DNA of 60,730 nucleotides, the filler included, from Sluysia triapertura (Eukaryota), in NCBI GenBank assembly GCA_046118255.1. It is 5 parts of 5 records of this genome, joined end to end, with 100 filler letters (N's around TTAATTAATTAA, not from the genome) between each part and the next. Parts side by side here need not be neighbours in the genome. Positions count along the whole stretch, not along the records: positions 23,986 to 36,429 come from JBJNIA010108758.1; 4 more parts are not named here. One strand, written 5' to 3'. Numbering within the stretch: position 1 is the stretch's first letter; each line of letters begins with the position of its first letter. The notes under the pieces were generated by a model. That model was not told where the DNA came from. It saw only the letters and a program-made list of their open reading frames with translations, and made no database searches. The translations under genes were made by a program, and so were the position numbers. Below, in pieces: positions 11,196 through 52,700 of the stretch.

Positions 11196-11295
11196 NNNNN
11201 NNNNNNNNNNNNNNNNNNNNNNNNNNNNNNNNNNNNNNNTTAATTAATTAANNNNNNNNNNNNNNNNNNNNNNNNNNNNNNNNNNNNNNNNNNNN
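11196..11295. other. Artificial assembly linker N44-TTAATTAATTAA-N44
   Basis: Exactly 100 nt with a six-frame stop 12-mer. Identical linkers occur at 23886, 36430 and 49485. Confidence 0.97.
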
Positions 11296-11340
<45 letters not shown>

Positions 11341-11433
11341 TTACAGTATTATAATATATAACTTTACATTATTATTATTATTACTATTATTATTACTTTC
11401 GGCATGTACTTGTGTATATAAATTAATACTAAC

Positions 11434-11694
11434 CGTTTAATAGCGGTTTCCCATTCATCATTTTCATCTTTGGAAAAGTCCAAGCAATCAACATTTTTAA
11501 CAATTTCATAAGCCGCATTTACTTCATCAATTGGATTGTTTTCAACTGCATCTGATACCATCAAAAAAGTGCTCTTGATCGTCACTTCGGTTCCAATTGT
11601 TGTGTCTTTATTGTCACCATTAGGACCGATTTTAGGACCCGGTTTTAAAACTCGAACTATGACTTGTCTTAACTGTTCATGTTGGTTTCGAAAT
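11434..11694 (-). CDS. DYNC1H1: Cytoplasmic dynein 1 heavy chain, N-terminal tail region, internal exon (third visible)
   Basis: acttAG acceptor; (R)FRNQHEQLRQVIVRVLKP...NPIDEVNAAYEIVKNVDCLDFSKDENDEWETAIKR; GTTAGT donor. Matches FRRQHEQLRAVIVRVLRP...[24 protein letters not shown] and is in phase with the previous exon. Confidence 0.93.
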
Positions 11695-12828
11695 CTAAGT
11701 ACAATGGTGGAAGAAGTAATTAAATTTCATAAATTAATTTTCTATCACATTTAATTCATATACAAATTTGTACATTTCAATTAGAATAAATTGTTGTAAA
11801 AATCTTGTTTCAGTAAAAATACAAATGAACTTAAACATTTCGCCAACAGCGTCACATATGTTTGACAACTAGATTTTCTGACCTGAACCCAGCTTCACAA
11901 ATGTGTGATGAGATTTCATTATCAATTTATGACAGTAGTTTGTACGAGATGACTTATGTCATAAAACAATAAAATAGATGCAGGTGTGTGAAATCGTTAA
12001 TTTTACATCTTACAAAAACTAATAAATGATATCATATTTAAAAAATTAAACGTTTGGGCTGTAGTTTTGATTTTTTTTCCAGAGCCTCTGGTAACGAACA
12101 CTTATTCTTCTAAATAAATTATTAATGTTATATTTTCTAGAAAAATGAAACCACAATACATCGTTTTTGTGTTTTAGAAATAAATATTTTCCTCTTCATT
12201 TCATACGCAAAAGTTCAAATGATGAATAGTGAACCACAAAATCTTTATTTCTACATAAATACAATATTCAATTTCTAAAGCAACATAACCAAACAGAACA
12301 TTCATAATAGTGATAACAGTACAACAATCTATAAATCATATTTTCACTAATTTACATTTATCTCCCATCATCACAAATTATCTCAAGTCACATTTCATAA
12401 TATTTCAACATCACGAATTACAAAACCTGTGCTTAGAAATTATTCTAAGGACGTTTCAGTTCAATATACATTTACAATAACATTTACAATATACATTTAC
12501 AATTTGTTAGTTACATTGTTCATACATCTTTCCATCAATATCCGCATATCATACAAAAGTGGCACACAAAATGGTCCTTATTTTCTTGATAAAGTTTATA
12601 TTATTTAACGTAGAATATTTCCTAATTTTTATAATTAATATATAAATATTGATCAAAATACATTGAATTTATCTTCCTCAGAAAAACCATCCTAAATATG
12701 CAATTTATAGTCTCGATAGAGATTATACACAATAACATTTTAAATTTTTAATTATATCAATGTAATACATTAAAATTTAGATTAAAGTATCCTACAATAA
12801 ATAAAATTAAGAAAATGTCAATTAAAAT

Positions 12829-12830
<2 letters not shown>

Positions 12831-12891
<61 letters not shown>
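12831..12891. repeat. (AAT)n microsatellite
   Basis: Perfect AAT run inside a dynein intron. Confidence 0.95.
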
Positions 12892-13367
12892 TTACTATTT
12901 AAATTTGTGCAAAACGACAATCAATATAATTTCTTTGACGTGTTTTATTGACATTAAAACACAAATTTAAAACATAAATGAAGTCAAGACATATGTACAT
13001 AAAATCCTAGAATAAATAATTAAATATTGATTGTTTAAATCAACGTGGAGTTCATTATATTTATATACCCTAGATTACTAAATGAGTTCTTAATATACAT
13101 TGTTGAAAATGTACTTTTTTTAAATATTGGTTATAAATATGAACCAATAAAGATAATTGCAATAAAATATGTAAATTTAATTTTATCCCACGGGATAGTT
13201 TCGAAAAATAAAATATTTTTAAGTGGTCTTATTTGGCGAGAATATCAGTATACAACATACAATGCTTTCTTTCCTTAAATAACATTTTGTTTAGTTTTTA
13301 TATCGTTCACAATTTTTGTTTTTTAGTTCTTCATTTAATAAAAGGAATTTAAAAAATTTCAACTTAC

Positions 13368-13588
13368 CTCTTAATTTGATCGAGTCGATTTTGTAATTTT
13401 TTATGAGATGCTGTCATTTTCCAAGAAAACTTGACAAATTCATCACGTTTCTTTTTCGACATATCGCGTAACAAATTTTGTATACGATCATACTCATCAT
13501 CCCATGTACTAAATACTTGAGCACAAGCATTTATAATCTTCTCAAAATCATCATATGGCATACTCATTAAATGTTTTGTACTGATAAC
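13368..13588 (-). CDS. DYNC1H1: Cytoplasmic dynein 1 heavy chain, internal exon (second visible)
   Basis: tatAG acceptor; VISTKHLMSMPYDDFEKIINACAQVFSTWDDEYDRIQNLLRDMSKKKRDE...HKKLQNRLDQIK(R); GTAAGT donor. Confidence 0.95.
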
Positions 13589-14305
13589 CTATAATCACAA
13601 TAATAATCATAGCAAACTTATTCTATATATTTTCTCAAATTTATTGATATAAGTAATGATACATAAACCTCCAATCTCAGTTTACTAGCACTAACATTTT
13701 TATAATAATTTGAAGAAAATTTGCAACACAACATAAAAGTCACAATCAAATTCTAAAATCATATTTGAAGATTTAATTATATAGACAGAAAATGTACCAG
13801 TAATATAGACGTAACTTATTTAGGATTACATACAAAAACTAAATCTTAAGAGATATTCAATAAAAAAGTAAGATAGCTCAAACAAATTCATTTAAATAAA
13901 CTGAAATTTTGAACCCATTATTTATGACAAAAGCAGAAAAATATAAATGTTATCATGCGTGAAATAAAAAACACAAGTATATGAACTAATCAAAACTACC
14001 CATAGTAAATTTACTTTATGCTTGTGCAATCATATTAAGATATTCCAGTTATTCCATTGTGTTAACAATGTTACTCTTCACCTATCTTTAAATAAAACAC
14101 ATCTCTCCGAAGAACCACAACGTTCTTTATACTTTATTAATTTTAAGAGTAATTTAGTTTTATTTCTGTAATTTAAATAAATCTACAATTGTTGCTAATG
14201 TTTATATCTTAAAGTTGAAGTCAAAATATTTATTAAATTTGGGACATGAAAAGATTAAATAATGAACATAAGTTTAAAAATACATAAACCACGAAATAAA
14301 CGAAC

Positions 14306-14526
14306 CTTAAGCATCTGATTAAGTAAATCTCTAGACAATGCTTCCATTAATTTCATTATCCGTTGCGTGGGATATTTCGTAGCTCGAACTTTTTTCAAAT
14401 GCGAAAATATTTGCATAATGGCTTCACTAATTTTATCTAACTGAGTCGCTGATAACAAATCATTGATAGGAAAATCTTTCATTAATTGATTGTAATCTTT
14501 AACTGTTGACTTGGATTGTGTTAAAG
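14306..14526 (-). CDS. DYNC1H1: Cytoplasmic dynein 1 heavy chain, internal exon (first visible)
   Basis: [32 protein letters not shown]...[25 protein letters not shown], bounded by AG and GT. Matches the conserved DYNxLMKDFPLNDLLSATELDKI motif. Confidence 0.95.
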
Positions 14527-14617
14527 CTTAAATAATTTAATACATTATAATTGCATTACAATCAAAATTATATTAATGATTGAATAGATATATTAAGATA
14601 TATCATGCATTTTGATA

Positions 14618-26778: not shown

Positions 26779-28077
26779 CTGAATGAAAATAATACATTAA
26801 TTTTATTTATTTATAATTGTAAATAGGTAATTTGATAAAATTGGATTTTTAATTATAACGGCAATTACTCCATTTAGATCAATGTTTACCTAATTTTCTA
26901 GATTTAAACCACATTGTAAATCTTTAAACTAATATGAAAAAGCAACCTCAAAAACAAATTCTGATAAGCATAATAGAAAAATAAGTTATGAAAATGTCAA
27001 TGTTTAGTTGAAAGTAAAAGTACGAATAAATAATTTTAAAAATTTAATTAATACGTTACTCAATGTACAATCAACTAATAATTTGTATGTTTATTGCTAG
27101 TATTTTTTTATTTTTTTGAAACTTAACGCAAAGGTACAATTTTATTTATTTTGAGAGGAAAGGCGAGTATATGTATCGACACGTAGCATCAATGCATATT
27201 CAATACAATGTGCGCGATAATTCAATAAATGTAATAATTTATTAAGATTTTATTATAAGACAATTCAAAGTAAAAACCAAACAACAAATAATAAAGTATT
27301 TAAATATTAAGTACAAATATTAATTTGTAATTTATTAAATTACCAAGAAAAATGCTTACAATTAAGGTTTATTTTAACACTTGCCTTACACAAACTGAAT
27401 AAACGAAAATAAAATTTTTGAATTGTACTTCATCTTTATAAATGGATTGTTTGCCAATTATTTTGTGTAATACAAATTGGATAATTACTATGTAAATCAT
27501 TTAATATTTTAGTATCTTTAATTCTTATTTTATTTGGCCTTAATTCCACCTATCCGATATCGAATACAATAAAATGTATTACCTTATCTATTTTATCTAC
27601 AGTTAATAACATTGCAAAATAATTATAAACAATTATAATTTTGATTAAATAAGCATTATTTTACTTATATATTATTAACTTGTATTGACCGGTATCTATT
27701 TAATCACATACTTTTATAACGGTCCAATAACCCAAATATACTTTAAAATATTTATAGGGTTATTAAATGTTTAAATTCAAATGTAGTAAGACTTAAGAAA
27801 GTATAAGACCTTCTAAATCCCTTAATATCTAATAAGTAGTATTTCTTTCGACACTTCTTTATTCTTTTAAGAAAACGTATCCAAACTTTTAATCAAAATT
27901 CTTAACAAATAGAAGTATTTTATTTTGAAACATTTATTGAGTAAATAATATTTTCATTTACATACTTATTTCTACTTTTTCATTGTTTATCTTATTTTAA
28001 AAATAAGAAAATTTCATCTTGATTCATGTTTATAAAAAAATAAAATTTTTAAATTTTGTTTAAATATTTAATGTTAA

Positions 28078-29147: not shown

Positions 29148-31255
29148 ATTTTTACCAATTTTTTTAATCATCAATATCCTAATAATTGGAACGTTTTGTA
29201 TCAAAAACGTTACTAAAAAGACAAAACAACACTCATGCACTCATAAAAAAGTTGGAAAAAAGTGTGTAACTGAAGACGAAGATGATGATAAAACGGTAAC
29301 AGCAAGTAAGAATGCGGTGCATTAGTAGTTAATATAAATTATAATTTTATCAAAAAGATTATTCAGTCATGTAGAAAGTATGTTGAGTTATAATTGTTGA
29401 TATTGTTTTTATGAAGACAAATTTTTATTATTTATTTAATGTTTAAATATTATTTTTATTATAATAATATAAAATAAAAAATATATTTAAAGTTAAATAA
29501 AATGTATGTGTGTAAAATATAAATTTAACATAAAACATTGCTTATATTTAAAATTTAAAGCTAAAAATAAAATATTTAATATTTCTTTATTTTAACAAAT
29601 TAAAAAAATATAATTTTGTTTTGTTGAAACAGAGAAATAAATGGCTGCCTAAATTTCACATAAATAGGGAAATTTAGACGAAAATCAGAACAATTTTTAA
29701 ACAGAAATTAGTAACAAAATTTGCTGGAAAAATTCGGACAATTTCCTTTTCAATTCTATGGATGTAAGTTTATTTTTATAAGTTTAAAGGGAAGGACCTA
29801 AAATCAACTTAATATTATTTTTAATTTTGATGCTAAACCGTAATAAGGCTAAGCTCAACAGTGACTTAAAATTATATAAATATCAGATTCGTCTGATTAT
29901 TATTAAAATATTATATTTGTTTTATAATTCGTTTTGTATAAATTTGAATACTGCCTGATAATATACGTTAAGATTTTATTTTTTATATAGACCGTAAAAA
30001 GACTAGCTTAACTTTTAAAAGACATACTTATTTTGTTAGACTGTAAAAGGTTAACTTAAAATATAATTTTATTATATTTTGAATAGATTTGTCATAAATA
30101 AATACTACGATCTTAAAAGTTTTATAAACTTCTACGTGACTATTCTTAAACTTAAAATATTACGTGACTAAATTTATTGTCAAAATCCAAATTAGAAGGC
30201 CTTCGTTCAAATATAAGTCATTTCAGTTAGCCCAACTCATCTCCAGAATCTTTTTGCAAGCACAAGTTAAGTTTCCTTAGATAAAATACTTGCACTTAAA
30301 TCACCTTAACATTATACTAGATTGCTTATTTAAACTTTCGTTACGTATACTTGTGAATGTCAAAGAGAATTACTTACCACGACCGTTCAAATGACCTTTT
30401 TTAGTTTTTACTTTAGAAAATACTCTGAAATTGTATTGTTTTTTACCATTTTATAATGTGACTTAATTTCATAAATAATTTTATATACAGGTCAAATAAC
30501 CGATGATGGTATGAATAGGTACATTTGGTGTAAAACAAACATTATTATTAAAAGTAGTACAACTGTGATAAAACTTTTCATGCTTTAATATGTTTACGCG
30601 ACATAATAAAAAAATTAGTATTTTAATGATTTGGATATCAATTATAGCAATAACAATGAAAAATTGAGAAATTGATTGTTTAAAAAAAATTTGTCGAAAA
30701 AATGAAAACTGCAAAAATTATTGGATGCTTATATGGACAAATGAGTGGTTTTATACGATATCAAAATACACAGTTATGAATCACGAAAGGAATACGATTA
30801 AATGAAATGATTAATGGAATCGACAAGAAAACAACCATTTATTTTTGTAAATCCAGTTAAAGTTAAATTGTACGATAATCTCAAGCACGAAATAAGTGAA
30901 ATGATTATATTTGATTACATCAACGATTTAGATTCAATTTATGAATTATCATGGGAACAAATAATTTCTTTTTATTCCGTTACAATAGATTATTTAGTTA
31001 TTATGTTGCTGTCCTGGCAAGCAATGAAATCTAATCCTACACCAAAAACGAGCGCTAATTCCACTATAGGTTGTAATTATAAATTGATAAATTATAAATT
31101 GTAATTATAATTATAATTATAATATTGAAACAACATTATTGATGTTATTTATATTTATTAAATTTAATGTATTTTGGTATATTGAAATGTTCAACTGTTT
31201 GTTTTTTCATTATTGAGAGAAATAAAGTGAATAGAATAAATGTTTAAATTAAAAC

Positions 31256-32259
31256 TGTGAATTCACCAACGTACTGGACTTACCGGCGATGGCCAGCCGT
31301 TGGATTTGGTAAAATAAAAGTATGGAGGTTAAGTCAAATTTTAGAATGTTCGTTGTTTAGAATGTTATCTATTAATTATTAGTAATTTATACAATTTATT
31401 CAGAAAATTTAAATGTAAATTTTTCGTAGATCCTTTGAAATAGGATCGAAATGATTAGTTTTCGTTGTTAGATTTATATTCTAACAAAATCCAATTGACG
31501 AATGATTTTGCTTTCAATTAAAACTATGTAAATTAATTCAAATTAAGAAAAATAAATCGTAAGGTTTATTATTAAAAATGTTGTGTATATATAAAAAAGG
31601 TATACTTAAGAATTAATCAAATTCTTTTGCTCAGTAATTATTTTAGTTAAAAGTTTACAATGAATCTATTATAAGATTCGAAATGATTTACAAATATGAT
31701 TTTTAGTCAGATTTTGTGTGGATATCTTATCGATATCGACTTCTATAAAAATAAACTAACTACAATAATGGAAAATTGAATAAAATTTCTTGAAGTCACG
31801 ATTAGCTTGGCAGGATTGGAATGAAGATATATTCGTTGATAACATAGAGTTAATCTTTGTAGAAAATCGGTTAAAAGGATATATGTCAGACTAAAACAAA
31901 ACTAATATTTTATTTATTAAAACTAATGATTTTTGTGATAAAATCAGTTTTTAATTAAATATAATTTTTATTAATAATTTAAAAATAATTAAAATCTTAT
32001 TAAAATTGATTAATTCCTTTAATTCAAATACAAATCCTTTAATAATAAATTCAAATACAATAATTAATAAATTCAAATAATCATTAAACAGTTTAAAATA
32101 AAATCAATAGTTATTCAAAAATAAATCGATAATTATGTAATTGTGTTTATATAAATAATCAGTAAAGCACAAATCAGAAATCACTTCAGTTTTTAAAAAC
32201 ATTTTATAAATCCAATGGCTGGCCCTAACTGGTAAGTCCAGTACGTTGGTGGGCTCACC
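31256..32259. mobile_element. ~1-kb non-autonomous DNA transposon with ~55-bp imperfect TIRs
   Basis: CACCAACGTACTGGACTTACC.G...GGCCAGCC.TTGGATTT at ~31264 is inverted at ~32208-32251. AT-rich non-coding interior. Confidence 0.85.
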
Positions 32260-32789
32260 TTAAAATTTTTGCTTTATTCTATCGTATCTTCACTTTACTT
32301 TTCCAACAACAACAACAATAATAATAATAACGATAATCACGGAATCCATGATAAAACATTGATAACCTCTGCTGTTATTGTGACCCAAAATAAACATATT
32401 GATAATTTTCCACATTCACTAATGAAAAATGATACGATTAATGAAAATATTAATGAAAATGCTAGAACTTTAATAATACTAATAATAATAAAGTATGGGT
32501 TTTGAGAATAAAGTCAAGAATAAAGATTATAACATGACTTCACACACCAAACAGATCACATTACTTATAATCCTTGCTGTTCACTAATTCCACAAATAAT
32601 AACATTAAACACATTGTGTCATATAAATAATATATTGCAAAATAAGTATCTAAGTAATTTTTATAACAACAATTACGATTATCCTCACCAATCTTATAAT
32701 AATTATAATTTTCTTTTTTGTTTTATTGGAATTTCTTTCAATTTTACATTTATTTATTTACATTTTATTCATCTTAATTTGAGCAATCT

Positions 32790-33357
32790 CGGGCCGAAGA
32801 AAAAGATAATATAAGTTACGTAAGTGATAACGAAGATAACTATAAAATAGAGATTTTATGAAAATTGAATCCCCAAGATTTGAGCATAAGAACTCTAATT
32901 TTAATACTGAATATGATAATAATTTAGATTATCGAGTAAATAGTTATAATACTACTAATCCTAATTTTAGAGGAAATAATTCTAATTACAGAGGTGACAA
33001 TTTTAATAGAGGAAATAATTTTAGAACAAATAGAGCTCCAAGGTATGATGATTCTCGAGGAGTTAGAAGTAATTTTAGAAAAGATAACTCTCCAGCTTTT
33101 AGAAATAATAATTTTGGTTTTAGAGGTAATAAAAGAACCTCAAACTTCAACAGTTACGAACAAAGACCTGCACCGCATAGGCCAAGTTCGGCCGGTGAAT
33201 ATTTTGATCGACAAAATAATAGTAGTAACACTAGAAGTAGGAGCCCTGATAAACTTAATGATAATAATCACTATAAGGCTTAGACAAACAAGAAGGGAAT
33301 GTAATATTTAATAACTGTGGTAAGCAAGGTCACTATGCTAAAAATTGTAGGAGTTAA
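32790..33357 (+). mobile_element. Retroelement gag-like remnant: N/R/G-rich region plus CCHC zinc knuckle
   Basis: ORF 32858-33283 carries NFRG-type repeats. 33301-33354 reads VIFNNCGKQGHYAKNCRS, i.e. Cx2Cx4Hx4C with the first Cys read as TTT. Confidence 0.75.
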
Positions 33358-34369
33358 GAGCTTACACCTTTAATCATAATCTTACTAAAATGCAAAATTA
33401 TTCGAGAGGGACAGGTTCTGATAGAAAACTAAGATTTAATGACCTTAAGAATAAGAGTAAGGGACAAATAAATTATAATTATAATAAAATGAGAAATAAT
33501 TATGACAAAGAAATGCACGGAAATTATGATACTGAAGAAGAAAACTATGGGAGAGCGATGGAATATAATAAAAGACATAAAGACGGATTTATTAATGAGT
33601 TTTCCAGAAAAGTAGATGATGACGATGATGATGAAAATGAATATAAATATAATAGACAAAAGGAAGATGAAGATGCATTCATAAATTATATGTACACATA
33701 TTATCTTGAATATTTAAAAAGAAAACAAGAGTTGAAAGACAGGGAGTTATAATAGGAAAAAGATGCACTTTAAGTGAATAATAAAAATCAAATGGATGAC
33801 AATAGTGACAATTCGAGTTTAACATCAGGTAAGAGAAGTGATACTGATTCGATTACCACTGAGGAAAATGATTCGAATGACACCACTGCGTTCAATTTTG
33901 GAAAAGATAACATAACAGATACGAAATCGATAACAAGTAAATATCTCGAAACAAATTCAACAATCAATGAAGAAGAAAGTTAGAGTATAACCGAAGATGA
34001 AGGTTCAAATACAAATGAAATTAGTAATTCGAATACAAGCAATGAATTTAGTCTAGAAAGCGAAAGCGAAAGCGAACCGGAACCAATAATAGTATCTGTC
34101 AATGAGGAAAATAAAGAAATTATATTAGAATTAATTACAAATAAAGAAGTTAATGCATTTCTTTCATGTTTAAATAAGGACCGACCAAAAACAGAAGATA
34201 TTTAAATTAATTTAGAAAATTTAAGTAAATCCGACTTAAGTTTACAAAATGGCCATAAAAATAAGTCCTTTTAGTTGCGTGAAGTAGAGAAGAGAGTCCT
34301 CATAAAGTTAAAGGAAGACTATTAAAGAAAACTGCACTTATAGAGAGAAATGAAACACCATCAACCTTA

Positions 34370-34590
34370 ATGAATACTAAAATATTAATTAATGATTCAA
34401 TAAATGTAGTAATGGAACTGCCTCTCACTACGAAAGTCAAAGAAATTATAGAGCTAATTAAGATGAATGACTCTAATACTAGGTTGTCCATTTATATTTT
34501 GTTTATAAAAATCTGGCGCCCAATGATTTTTTAAATGATTATAGTTACCCTCTTGGAATTCATAATGATATATTAAAAGCTACTATTGTT
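34370..34590 (+). pseudogene. Ubiquitin-like domain (one frameshift) inside the gag-glycoprotein element
   Basis: MNTKILINDSINVVMELPLTTKVKEIIELIK aligns ungapped to the hydrophobic pattern of ubiquitin 1-31. After a shift near 34485, HLYFVYKNLAPNDFLNDY aligns to RLIFAGKQLEDGRTLSDY. Confidence 0.55.
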
Positions 34591-35291
34591 TATGATACAT
34601 CCCTTAGTTATTCTACTCCTAATAAAGTTAATATAGATATAAATGAAAATAAAGTTAAGAATAATGTTATTATTGATACAGATAATGAACAGCCAGATTA
34701 CATAATAGATTTAAATGATATATTTAAATAAAAGAGACATTAAATAAGGAAACAAATACTCTCAAAAGAAGACCAGGCAGACCCAGAAAAGAAGAATGTA
34801 GTCATCAATTAATAACTTCTAATAGTGTTAATAGGAATACTTTAGACTTAACGAAAATTATTTGTAATGGCGATAAAATTGAAATAGATACAAGTTTAAT
34901 TTATGCTTTATTGTCGGATATATTTGATAATTTTGGTAAGTATAAAATATTGTTACCTAAGATTAAGGATTATAGAAGTGCAATTACTCAGTTAACACAA
35001 CAATTAGGGGAAAATATAGAGATAAGGATATAAGTGATTATATAGATACAGGGCATATAAGTTAGTAAGAGATAAACAAATTAATACTGGATTAAATAGA
35101 CAAAAGCTCAACATCATCATTGCCTATACATTGTTCCAATGCGATAAAGCGAAACTTCTTACTAAAGAAAAAGTAGATAAAATAATAAATTTCATAGACA
35201 AAAAACTTAATAGACAAAAATATAATTAAAGAAAGAGACTAATGAAACTCTCAATAGGTTCACAAATATATTAGGAAATAATAATAACCTA

Positions 35292-36429
35292 TTGAATAAT
35301 ATACTGCCTAAATTAGGTAATTCGACTAATAATATGTTATTTGGAATTATTTTGCTTGCCATGTTTGGCATAAATAAGACAAATGGAATTAAGGCATTTG
35401 ATTGCAGTAGGCCTCACGTACGTAGAAAATTTTCATTACTCGACACAGATGATTGCCCGGAATCACGACCCAATAGAGTAATCATTAAGATAGTAAGATA
35501 CTTAATGTGCATCAAGAAGGCAATTTAATAACAACTATAGTAAGAGAATGTTCGGTTAAACGATCAATCGTAATATGGTATTGTGGACATCATAGCCACT
35601 CATTGATTATTGATATATCAAACGTTTTAAAACCTTTTAAGATATCACCCAATAATTGTAGAGATGCATTCGAAACCGGCTGCATAAATTTAAATAAGGG
35701 AGATAAGTTAAAAATAAAAGATAATGAAAAGATTATTTATAACGTAAAGACAGAAGGAAATGTATTACTAGATGAAACGTGTGAAAGAGGTTCTAGAATA
35801 TGAAGGTAAATTATATCATAACGTCGTTGCACAAGAAACATACTTAGTAAGTCTGAAAACTTAATGAAAGTTTCGATAGAGAAAAAGGTACTATGATCTC
35901 GCGTTCATTTTGTAAAATAGATCAAACTAGCTGCGACGCAAGAAAATCTATATTACTCTGAATTATATAATATTTCTAAAACAAATTAAGTTTAATATTG
36001 GATCAGGATTTGTATTTCAAAATGATCACGAAATACCTATTGAGGAATTAAGTAAGAAACAAACAGATAAGGAAAATTTAGAAAGACAAAGACTAAAGGA
36101 GATAGAAACTCTTACAAGTCTTATGGCAAATAAGGAAGAAGATGGTTTAATATTTATGTCAAAAAATTCAATCATTAGATGTGGTAAGGAAATAACAGAA
36201 ACTAACTATCAAGGTATTTATTTGCCTGAACCTAAAAATCTAAAATTAAACGCATATTTCAACAATAAGATTGACTTTTACTATTATTTAGGACTAATGT
36301 CGCTAAAAAAGTTTATCAAGCAATTATAATAAGAGATTGTCAACTAAATAAGGAAATTTTACGAACTAAGTTAGCGATTGCAATTACTAATCCTAATCTA
36401 GTAGCATCACTTTTACCTTTAGAAGAAGG
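35292..36429 (+). pseudogene. Chuvirus-like envelope glycoprotein, frameshifted and truncated at the linker
   Basis: Signal-like LFGIILLAMFG, then AFDC..FSLLDTDDCP, ECSVKRSIVIWYCGHHSH, ISPNNCRDAFETG, LNAYFNNKIDF and DCQLNKEILRTKLAIAITNP. Same motif order as chuviral G (YDC..SLL..C, CG.xSH, AYxNSK, CxL..L.IA..P). Confidence 0.8.
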
Positions 36430-36529
36430 NNNNNNNNNNNNNNNNNNNNNNNNNNNNNNNNNNNNNNNNNNNNTTAATTAATTAANNNNNNNNNNNNNNN
36501 NNNNNNNNNNNNNNNNNNNNNNNNNNNNN
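36430..36529. other. Artificial assembly linker N44-TTAATTAATTAA-N44
   Basis: Same 100-nt structure as the other linkers. Confidence 0.97.
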
Positions 36530-36559
36530 TAATAATAATAATAAATAATTAATGACATT

Positions 36560-37420
36560 TAAGTACTTTCATTTAATCTATCAAAATGTATGAAAATAAC
36601 ATTGAAACATTTTGTTTAATAGAAACTTGGATTAATGATGATAAAATATTTAATTCATTATTCCCTCTAAATAGATATTTATTTTTTCATAAATACATAG
36701 AAAAATCAGATGGTGGTGATATTGGTGTTATAAAAAATAATCGAATAAGTCCCTAATTAATTGGCATTGTTCCAGTTAAATATAAATCATTTGAACATAT
36801 AAAATTAAGTATTACTGAAACAAATAAAATAATAATATTAATTTTTCTATAGACCACCAAGTAATTTAATTATATATTTTTAGATGAATTCCATGATTAT
36901 TTGGATATTATTTTAGGAAAAGCCAAAGAAGTTTTAATAAAAGGAGATTTATAAAAAATGAATGACGAATTTAGAACATTCATAGAATTACTAAATATAT
37001 TCAATTTAACGAACTGCGTGAATTTTATAACTCATAAATATGGAAATATATTAGATTTATTAAAAACCAATATTGGTAGAAATATTGTTACATATATTAA
37101 AGTGAATAATTTATTAGATATATCTGATCATTATATATTTAGGTTTAAAATAGAATTTAAGATTACAAATTGCGCTTGGTATAAAACATTGATATTGAAG
37201 AGCTGAGCGCAGACTTAAATTTTGCAGACTATGTAGATACGATGAGAAATTTATACAACAGAACATTATTCTTATTTTTAAACAAGCATGCACCTTTAAA
37301 GTACAAAATGTGGTGCGTTTATTATTGAGTTACGAAGAATAAAGCGCTGCAAAGAAAGGAAATGGAGAAGTAAAAAACTGACGAAATAAAGAATGAATAC
37401 AAAAAATCTCGTAATATATT
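36560..37420 (+). mobile_element. CR1/L2-like LINE ORF2, APE endonuclease remnant
   Basis: YQNV, IETW, GGDIG, YRPP, FLDEF, KGD(F/L), TH..GNILDL and ISDHY occur in order, then KHAPLK and ERKWR. Many stops and frameshifts. Confidence 0.88.
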
Positions 37421-37854: not shown

Positions 37855-38403
37855 TTATAATTTATTGAACTTTGAAAATTGTAAAAAAATTGTGCAAATC
37901 AGCGACGGATTTAACAGATGGTTCAGCGTCTCTTCTTTCATGGATCCTTTTTCGCCTTGGCACAGATGAAAATTTCTAAAATATATGTTATACAGATAAT
38001 CAATGTTAAAAAGGTGAAAGATCAAATTAAATATTAATTTATTACTTCTAATGTTGAGAACTCTACTGTAAATCGAAACTTCGAATATACCATTAGCCCT
38101 GTTGATTAAAAACTGATGAGCATTCTCCGACGGATACCAATCTGATTTTCCATAAACTGCATCAATGGCGACATCCAAAATCTGGCAAAGATTCTCTGGC
38201 AGGTATAAGTTTGATTCCTCGTAAGTAGCGTAACAAGTAACATCTAGATTCTGATGAACATCTTCTGTTTCATTCATTAATATCCTAGGATCGTATCTAT
38301 CATCATTTACACTTTGCTTTACATCACTAATAAACGCTGACATTGTAGAATCGCATCTAACATTATTTACACTTTGCTTTAGGTCACTAATAAACGCTAA
38401 CAT
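37855..38403 (-). CDS. Unknown ORF with internal tandem repeats, downstream of an LTR
   Basis: 182-aa ORF with a 60-bp duplication (M[LS]AFISD[LV]KQSVN) and three weaker ~22-aa E[DN]xxQxL repeats. The 3' part may be intronic. Confidence 0.4.
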   Translation of the reverse strand: MLAFISDLKQSVNNVRCDSTMSAFISDVKQSVNDDRYDPRILMNETEDVHQNLDVTCYATYEESNLYLPENLCQILDVAIDAVYGKSDWYPSENAHQFLINRANGIFEVSIYSRVLNIRSNKLIFNLIFHLFNIDYLYNIYFRNFHLCQGEKGSMKEETLNHLLNPSLICTIFLQFSKFNKL

Positions 38404-38822
38404 TGTATAGGAGCTGCCGAAAATTAAAATAATTGAGACTTCTTTTTTCTAGTATATTAATTTTTTGTTTTTAAAATGGCTGTATATTGCATAAATTTTT
38501 GTTCGTTACTGTCTGAAAATTATTGTAATCACTCCTAAGAAAAGTAAAAATAAATGGCTGACTAATAAGTTGAATAATTGTGGTCTGAAAATTAATTTTT
38601 CATTGCTTATTTTTAATCCAATTGTCTTTGCCGAATAAAAATCTCTTAATTCCTCTTTGTCTCTTACTGATATCAATATTGTCTCCAATAATTGGGTATT
38701 TAATAAAGACAACTATGATTGGGTGTTTCAATTTTTAGTTTGTCTTATTTTTATCTCTGACTAATGAAAAATTTGTACTTTAATTGGTCTAATGATAATT
38801 ATTACATAATATGAATCAGTGT

Positions 38823-43419: not shown

Positions 43420-44304
43420 CATTGGTGTGAAAAAGTATTGATACATCTTAATTATAGTGAATATTTTCTATTTAACTCATTAATATGAGTCTTAAGCCTC
43501 ATTTTATAATAGAACAGTGTTTTAAGCACTTGGTATTAATTTTGGAATTAACTGAAAACTTTGATTAGGGATGTAAACTTGATGTAAAAACAAAATTCAT
43601 TTGTAAGATAGGAGAAAAAAGTAATTAATATAATTCTGTTATGCTATTTTACTGATGCCGAAGTCAAAAAAAGCCAACGGTAATGCTTCAAAACCGAGAG
43701 TTAAGTATTCGAAGGATTTCAGGCATTTAATATTCTACCTGGATTTTATTTACATATTTTATTCAGAACAATTATTGGTTTCCTTTTCGACAGTTCAAAT
43801 AATCCTTAAAATGTACAAGGAGACCGAATCAGTCCAAAATATGCCAAGAATTGGCAGACCATATATTCTACTGAGAGGTAGACTTAATACATGATCCCGC
43901 AGTTGGATCAAAAAAGCTGGTGCCGGTGTAAAACATCAGTTAAAAATATGTTGCATACTAATAAGATGCAGCATTTAGAGCTTCCGGATTTACAAAAAAG
44001 CATCTGCTGACGAGATAAGCGAAAAAGAAAGTATATCAAGAAGGATACGTCATTTTGGAGCAACTTTTGTTTGTTTGGTGACGAGTCGGCACACATGTAT
44101 CCGGAGATTGTTATGTGCCAAGTTAATTGAGAAATGTGTCACTTCACCCAAGAATCCACTCTATGATGATATAGGGTAGGTGGGATTTTTGTTGCGAATG
44201 AAGTCTGGTAACTAAATTAAATGTCTTGAAAAAAATGATGTCAACTGCAAGGGAACTCTATGGGGATTTCCAATTTGTTATTGACATACTTTTTCATACC
44301 AATG
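43420..44304 (+). mobile_element. Internally deleted Tc1-like transposon with both TIRs and TA target duplication
   Basis: TA-CATTGGTGTGAAAAAGTAT ... ATACTTTTTCATACCAATG-TA. HTH remnant SFSTVQIILKMYKETESVQNMPRIGRP and catalytic-region W..FCLFGDES. Confidence 0.92.
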
Positions 44305-52140: not shown

Positions 52141-52700
52141 AATGTAAATTATAGTCCTATTATATTAAATAAAATTTCATTAAATGAATTATTAACTATT
52201 AACCAAAGTAATGCTGTGTTTATGATCATCAAAGACCATGTAATTGTACAAAATCATATTGTTTAAAGTTACATTGTGTATGCTCTGCTCGAAATAAAGT
52301 ACATGTAAATTGTAACCACATCAATCGTATGAACAATTTGACTCATGAAAATAATCATTTGACTACTCTATCGAAGATTTTGCGTAAAGATCCAATGTCA
52401 TGTGCACTTAAAATAGATTCTGGACAACAACAAGAGGAGCATTATAAGTGATGTGATTGTAAACGATCAGAACGTCGAGTGAGTGTCGAGAAGTTGAAGA
52501 TAACGAAAACAAACACTACAAGACAGTTGGTGAGTGTACCAGATACGGCAAAGATTGCAGATATTGTCACGGAGTTTTCGAATTCCAAAATGATTTTAGT
52601 TATTCGTCAAATTACAATGACCACCACGATAGAATGAAGTCCCTCTTATCAACCTTTGGAATCACATTAGATGTGCTAAATTTGTCTATTAATGATACTG
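52141..52700 (+). pseudogene. Third decayed copy of the CCCH-finger ORF family
   Basis: LLTINQSNAVFMIIKD, then GECTRYGKDCRYCH (52529-52570) and YNDHHDRMKSLLSTF. Confidence 0.65.

Follow-up and report, generated by a model that had tools for sequence, protein, structure and literature searches.

A decayed gag-env remnant at a contig end of Sluysia triapertura, very probably from a Burro-like Ty3/gypsy retrotransposon

The window analysed here is a stretch of 60,730 nucleotides of the Sluysia triapertura assembly GCA_046118255.1, made of five contigs, each about 11-13 kb, joined by artificial linkers. The third of these contigs (JBJNIA010108758.1, 23986-36429) ends on its right side in a gag-env remnant. 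We conclude that this remnant is very probably a dead copy, truncated at its 5' side, of a Burro-like Ty3/gypsy long terminal repeat (LTR) retrotransposon, with a pol that would be located past the contig end. A preliminary description had presented the region from 32790 to 36429 as a gag-like retroelement that carries a chuvirus-type fusion glycoprotein and lacks any visible pol. The gag-env remnant is a real observation, and the surprise of the missing pol is accounted for by the contig end. Indeed, the linker N44-TTAATTAATTAA-N44 is present four times in the window, at 11196, 23886, 36430 and 49485, which identifies 36429 as the end of a contig. Since this contig ends inside env, the absence of a visible pol is uninformative on the element.

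Env at the contig end and pol in the relatives

The glycoprotein was identified by profile and by comparison with relatives. Three of the four pieces scanned match PF24664 (Monjiviricetes fusion) collinearly, at positions 3-51, 63-155 and 327-362 of the 653 of the profile, with a best E-value of 1.2e-12. The fourth piece, 35931-36326, has no Pfam match but matches relatives by tblastn. With the relatives as queries, tblastn resolved env into five segments that follow one another collinearly, in frames 3, 2, 1, 3 and 2. Env thus consists of at least five segments with at least four frame changes and runs to profile position about 362. As the last segment reaches the final base of the contig, env was cut slightly beyond its middle (~55% of the profile) by the assembly. 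The signal-like hydrophobic stretch and the motifs AFDC, YCGHHSH, AYFNNK and CQLNKEILRT of the preliminary description were all recovered, and hydrophobic segments occur at the start and at the end of env in the relatives. The proposed comparison with class III fusogens was run on one relative, P0003: the model of its env (19 sequences, predicted local distance difference test (pLDDT) 72.5) matches herpesvirus gB throughout the matches listed, with a best E-value of 4.8e-13, and on this basis env is predicted to be of class III. A PDB sequence search with the env alignment gave retropepsins and weak Bcl-xL matches only, and no fusogen.

Relatives were collected with phmmer among 1.84 billion representative proteins, using as query one frame of the env region with X at stops. 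PF24664 is present in all 16 proteins matched. Every match long enough to show its context is a retroelement polyprotein and none shows a viral context; the glycoprotein family itself, PF24664, is chuvirus-like. A retropepsin follows env in the same open reading frame (ORF) in 7 of the 16 proteins (below the curated Pfam cut-off in P0005), and reverse transcriptase (RT), RNase H and integrase follow in two (P0004 and P0006). A CCHC knuckle precedes env in two proteins by Pfam and in two more by pattern, most of the others being short env fragments. The cluster members P0019 and P0022, of 4844 and 3003 aa, respectively, show the order env-protease-RT-RNase H-integrase. P0019 carries an ankyrin match; the sizes of other relatives range from 2600 to 3400 aa.

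Scans of contig stretches added three loci, L001, L002 and L003, from metagenome contigs (at least 3 positives in 595 stretches), while 0 of 21 genome-contig and 0 of 364 viral-contig stretches were positive. A word-based homolog search retrieved 0 of 101 candidates with the best env piece and 2 of 7998 with alignment A1. L003 is a single ORF of 2693 codons encoding a capsid-like part, CCHC knuckle, env, protease, RT, RNase H and integrase. L001 encodes env, three proteases, RT, RNase H and integrase, and L002 encodes gag, CCHC knuckle, spacer and env, and stops at its own contig end. In L003 and P0007, a single polyprotein carries gag, an in-frame env and the protease in this order. Altogether, env is followed by RT, RNase H and integrase in six relatives (P0004, P0006, P0019, P0022, L001 and L003), and RT precedes env in none of the 16 phmmer matches, P0019, P0022 or the three loci. 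The pol of the relatives is of the Ty3/gypsy type (PF17917, PF17921 and PF00665 after env), and a BEL-type peptidase A17 was reported in no relative's domain scan.

In 8 of the 8 relatives checked, the first protease motif lies 321-564 residues beyond the position of the contig end. The pol missing here is thus what an assembly break at this point is expected to produce. The continuous ORFs from env to integrase strongly support the suggestion that pol was located downstream of env, once within a single polyprotein. It is unlikely that the remnant represents instead a non-autonomous derivative, which would have kept gag and env, lost the pol after env and depended on an autonomous Burro-like partner for its copying in trans. 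Nothing is visible past 36429, the ORFs of P0005, P0007, P0008 and P0010 stop after one to several proteases without RT, and P0020, an RT-RNase H-integrase ORF, is recorded with a longest contig of the same size as P0008, all of which would suit such a derivative. Against it stand the lack of any positive sign of deletion, the single-ORF run from env to RT and integrase in six relatives, and the stop of the contig about 1 kb or more short of the expected protease. Pol acting in trans, the other possibility raised in the preliminary description, is unsupported apart from the contig ending at 36429.

The relatives display further features of their own. L002 has one in-frame TGA between its gag/spacer ORF and env (L002:3058-3060), which may reflect readthrough or decay. 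Two to four or more retropepsin-like domains are present per polyprotein in P0007, P0010, P0019 and L001. P0006 (HBK71150.1), a retroelement polyprotein of animal type, is annotated as coming from a Flavobacteriaceae metagenome-assembled genome; this label is likely due to animal DNA in the bin, that is, contamination. A second ORF located 3' of the L001 polyprotein (L001:10617-12104) contains an RNase_T (DEDDh) exonuclease domain (E=1.4e-5) and possibly serves the element as an accessory gene.

Gag and spacer of the remnant

On the gag side, the segment rich in asparagine, arginine and glycine (N/R/G-rich) was confirmed as a stop-free frame, which is likely the nucleocapsid-side part of gag (Table 1). 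N/R/G-rich tracts next to CCHC knuckles were also seen by eye in P0005, P0007 and L003. The knuckle that follows scores 21.9 bits against a zf-CCHC cut-off of 20.8; another residue holds its first Cys position, leaving three of the four ligands, so the knuckle described earlier stands in degenerate form. It shares 50% identity over 22 aa with the knuckle of L002 (E=0.03). No capsid-like gag domain and no LTR-like repeat were found on the contig. Since the gag N-termini of four relatives match the window at the knuckle region only, we consider that the 5' LTR and the capsid region are absent from this copy.

Table 1. Features of the remnant, of its surroundings and of its relatives (positions in the window unless a locus or protein is named)
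Feature	Position	Strand	Basis
Cytoplasmic dynein heavy chain exons	11367-14527	-	
MITE-like (miniature inverted-repeat transposable element) insertion, about 1 kb, 52-nt inverted ends	31264..32251	.	86.5% complementary arms; very deep at both ends in sequencing run X1
Low-depth flank	32342..32819	.	One contig, depth 21.8, no differences
N/R/G-rich stop-free frame, 145 codons	32846..33283	+	Frame reading; no Pfam match
Degenerate CCHC zinc knuckle	33307..33348	+	zf-CCHC E=1.7e-4
Decayed spacer between gag and env, with acidic tract and coding remnants	33351..35333	+	Knuckle-to-env distance; A/purine-rich + strand bias
Possible ubiquitin/SUMO-like remnant, not significant	34385..34486	+	0.1 bits, 10th among 81 window domains
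AT-hook-like motif KRRPGRPRK	34764..34790	+	The pattern matches nowhere else in the window in any of six frames
Possible Bcl-2-like remnant, not significant	35080..35169	+	0.9 bits, rank 4 of 88
Hydrophobic signal-like segment preceding env	35334..35372	+	Relatives have hydrophobic segments at this site
N-terminal part of PF24664 env, predicted class III (gB-like)	35394..36429	+	Pfam, tblastn; fold of relative P0003
Artificial contig linker N44-TTAATTAATTAA-N44	36430..36529	.	Identical linker 4x in the window; another contig thereafter
Post-integrase hydrophobic regions	L001:9101-9952, L003:7754-8446, tails of P0004, P0006, P0019 and P0022		

The distance from knuckle to env is ~695 codons in the window. 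It amounts to 613 (P0013), 625 (P0007) and 719 (L002) codons in relatives with a long spacer and to 259-362 codons in three relatives with a short one. The AT-hook-like motif KRRPGRPRK lies 207-209 codons before env, compared with 191-225 in the three long-spacer relatives; an AT-hook-like motif was found in 6 of the 13 relatives tested. Because the length and the position of this motif agree with the accessory region of intact relatives, the spacer is more than low-complexity filler, and it is likely the decayed counterpart of the accessory region of the long-spacer relatives. The preliminary description of some 2 kb of acidic, low-complexity coding remnants was right as to the acidic tract and the coding remnants but incomplete, the match to the accessory region coming in addition.

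In several relatives this region contains recognizable domains. In the structure predicted for the L002 spacer from 4 sequences, residues 79-156 match SUMO/ubiquitin (Foldseek E=1.9e-4; Z 12.2, root-mean-square deviation (rmsd) 1.4, 75 aligned) and residues 298-431 match the Bcl-2 family (Z 12.8, near chance level for helical bundles; rmsd 3.2, 131 aligned). Weak Pfam Bcl-2 matches in P0003, P0013 and P0018 back the latter. Profiles of the ubiquitin-like, Bcl-2-like and helical domains were built from 3-6 relatives and run on the six frames of the window. The ubiquitin/SUMO-like and Bcl-2-like signals obtained are both below threshold, ranking 24th and 27th of 120, respectively, in a frameshift-aware scan, and both sit where the layout of the relatives puts them. 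An Atlas search with 35038-35226 gave no usable match.

The pol parts of four relatives produced a single match in the window at E<=1 (E=0.34), on another contig. As they have no match on this contig, there is no protease, RT, RNase H or integrase between knuckle and env, in agreement with the preliminary description, and the spacer contains no pol remnant. These data bear on a second alternative, namely that an ordinary gag-pol-env element, either an errantivirus or an Anakin-like BEL/Pao element, lost the pol located between gag and env through a deletion. Gypsy and BEL/Pao elements bearing a glycoprotein of this family do exist, according to the available parts of PMC7642597, PMC10084718 and PMC13524379. 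This origin is nevertheless very improbable: in addition to the lack of a pol remnant, spacer length and AT-hook-like position are those of gag-env-pol relatives, and neither an RT upstream of env nor a peptidase A17 was encountered among the relatives.

Copies, surroundings and weight of the evidence

Contigs of one sequencing run, X1 (share 0.44), which may be the assembly's own source, were mapped on 30000-36429. The 6977 contigs aligned comprise 361 at >=99% identity, 1214 at 95-99%, 2690 at 90-95% and 2712 at <90%. Summed depth, which is not copy number, is 2,600-60,000 in each bin of 32795-36429 and 122-488 at 32365-32794. This pattern fits an old dispersed multi-copy family, with the local remnant beginning near 32800. 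The copy itself is frameshifted, stop-ridden and 5'-truncated. Both the depth and the A/purine bias of the + strand are unbroken from about 32800 to 36429, which, together with a knuckle-to-env spacing as in intact elements and the retroelement polyproteins found for all context-bearing matches, makes it very unlikely that a chuvirus glycoprotein inserted independently beside an unrelated gag fragment, even if PF24664 is mainly viral and the Atlas neighbours of one relative's env are largely Negarnaviricota clusters.

Upstream of the remnant, the arms of the MITE-like insertion (31264-31315 and 32201-32251) were considered as an element end or LTR. This was rejected, since both arms lie upstream of the remnant, with low-depth DNA in between. 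No Pfam match was found for the insertion in six frames. On the other side of the linker, a decayed remnant at 36532-37400 (+), by eye presumably non-LTR endonuclease-like, was ruled out as the missing pol because it sits on a different contig. Neither this remnant nor a second decayed one at 24936-25550 (-), which by eye we take to be a mariner-like transposase, has a Pfam match in the frames scanned.

Several points weigh against a Burro-like origin of the remnant. Pol is unseen for this copy or its own family, the contig stopping at 36429, and neither an LTR nor a primer-binding site nor a target duplication turned up. The relatives are distant, with 26-68% identity per env segment and no host on record. 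The spacer contains no significant ubiquitin-like or Bcl-2 remnant, whether sought with profiles from relatives, the frameshift-aware scan or Atlas. As to the folds, the gB matches of P0003 have low TM-scores (0.16-0.31 by query length), and the L002 spacer model is weak (pLDDT 50, with the Bcl-2 part mostly at 50-70), its Bcl-2 Z value being one that helical bundles approach by chance. The depth pattern comes from a run that is possibly the source of the assembly and cannot be read as copy number. Finally, the flatworm assignment of the host discussed below rests on one dynein piece, full-length dyneins having been excluded from the search by their length.

The window is AT-rich eukaryotic DNA (19-32% GC per kb) of an animal genome, with tubulin and dynein heavy chain exons. 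The dynein piece, on another contig, scores 61 bits with a monogenean protein (1 of 50 candidates) against 50-53 bits with PDB dyneins, which points weakly to a flatworm as the host. Divergent tubulin gene exons with Tubulin_C matches lie at 25556-26796 (-). Other features are a 560-codon stop-free frame without Pfam match at 21322-23001 (-), a weak match to a transposase helix-turn-helix at 43634-43891 (+), a weak CXC/TCR domain match at 52212-52448 (+) and a 60-nt tandem duplication at 38286-38407.

Known elements and the proposed biology of the family

Burro, or GYPSM1, designates giant gypsy-like LTR retrotransposons of planarians (PMC6431247, citing Grohme et al. 2018 and Jurka 2007). According to the parts of PMC6431247 available to us, the Gag of Burro, which has two or three CCHC knuckles, is followed by Ubi2/SUMO-like and BCL-2 motifs, and the env, located in frame before the protease, matches mononegavirus fusion glycoproteins. 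The same source regards Burro as the first example of env placed in frame between gag and pol, and notes that Dugesia japonica contains decaying fragments interrupted by stops and frameshifts. Relatives of our remnant share the order gag-CCHC, spacer and env before protease, the spacer having predicted ubiquitin-like or Bcl-2-like parts in several of them. In contrast, the copy described here is a 3.6-kb fragment, and the ubiquitin-like and Bcl-2 folds are predicted in relatives and not in this copy. The giant size of Burro (over 30 kb), its MATH, BIR, ankyrin and Smc parts and its LTRs lie outside what the fragment shows. The comparison made here is with the published description of Burro.

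A second published group is formed by the errantiviruses of Nematoda, Bryozoa and Platyhelminthes, for which the parts of PMC13524379 available to us give only HSV/gB-type env (HSV, herpes simplex virus) and the order GAG-ENV-POL. They include nine platyhelminth elements, six of them from Schmidtea (supp1), and are intact, often multi-copy elements with pol, with up to 215 copies in Schmidtea. Schmidtea errantivirus 6 is the one place in the env supplement (supp2) where CGHHSH is present. When inspected by eye, the rows for env domains I-II in Platyhelminthes_C1a (Schmidtea errantivirus 1-6) resemble the present env and its relatives in this motif and in cysteine spacing, whereas the nematode rows do not; this comparison covers one part of supp2, and closer published relatives may stand in the remaining parts. 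With these errantiviruses the remnant shares a class III/gB-type env (PF24664 in the window, predicted gB fold in P0003) and a gag upstream of env, the knuckle lying at 33307 and env at 35394 with no pol match in between. The gypsy-type pol after env is seen in six relatives, and here the contig ends 321-564 codons too early to include it. Unlike the published elements, the present copy has decayed and breaks off where the contig stops. The main text of this eLife survey (PMC13524379) does not mention Burro, Bcl-2 or ubiquitin.

Chuvirus glycoproteins have also been described in Anakin, a BEL/Pao element of mosquitoes (PMC7642597), and as endogenous viral elements derived from Jingchuvirales (PMC10084718), as far as the available parts of both sources go. 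Anakin resembles the present element in being a retroelement with a chuvirus-like glycoprotein. Judged on the relatives, its BEL/Pao-type pol is not shared: they have gypsy-type RNase H and integrase profiles and no peptidase A17. Because their pol is of the Ty3/gypsy type, the link to Anakin and BEL/Pao raised in the preliminary description does not fit. The gag-X-env layout stressed there is indeed unusual, but it is already published for Burro (PMC6431247) and for the GAG-ENV-POL errantiviruses (PMC13524379), in the parts of these sources available to us. Publications of this layout date back to 2019, and this copy is a dead further example of a known architecture.

From the relatives, an intact member of the family would be one long ORF encoding gag (capsid, CCHC), spacer, signal, class III env, anchor, protease, RT, RNase H and integrase; parts resembling ubiquitin/SUMO, an AT-hook and Bcl-2 occur in the spacer of several relatives. 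As in the general topology of polyproteins, the hydrophobic stretch that precedes env would serve as an internal signal routing the glycoprotein into the endoplasmic reticulum, where signal peptidase would free it from Gag. The membrane anchor of env would bring the Pol part back to the cytosol, to be processed by the element's own protease, and particles could then take up the gB-like fusogen. The SUMO-like and Bcl-2-like domains may act on host ubiquitin and cell-death pathways, an action speculated for Burro in the available part of PMC6431247. The family would have dispersed by retrotransposition; the present copy has decayed and makes none of these products.

Hydrophobic segments are found behind the integrase in all six relatives with a complete integrase, with two segments in three of them. 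A motif L-x-P-x-T-x-Y, presumably fibronectin-III-like, occurs in four of these six, in L001 as an internal copy (L001:4805-5227). Three pieces of these post-integrase regions were scanned without any meaningful Pfam match. A second membrane protein after the integrase is not described in the available parts of PMC6431247 and PMC13524379, nor did a literature search find one, Repbase and Grohme et al. 2018 lying outside this comparison. In the relatives, such a protein could be an attachment partner of the fusogen. That the family represents an invertebrate retrovirus able to spread from cell to cell, whose polyprotein would give Gag, SUMO-/Bcl-2-like host modulators, a gB-like fusogen, Pol and a second membrane protein, is a speculative and rather doubtful extension.

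As one dead fragment of a known architecture, the locus is by itself of little weight, which would rise if the host belonged to a group other than flatworms, nematodes and bryozoans, or if pol turned out to be missing from the family. The analysis ties together the descriptions of Burro and of the GAG-ENV-POL errantiviruses, which do not name each other, and adds structure predictions for relatives of the remnant: SUMO-like and Bcl-2-like domains in the spacer and a gB-like env.

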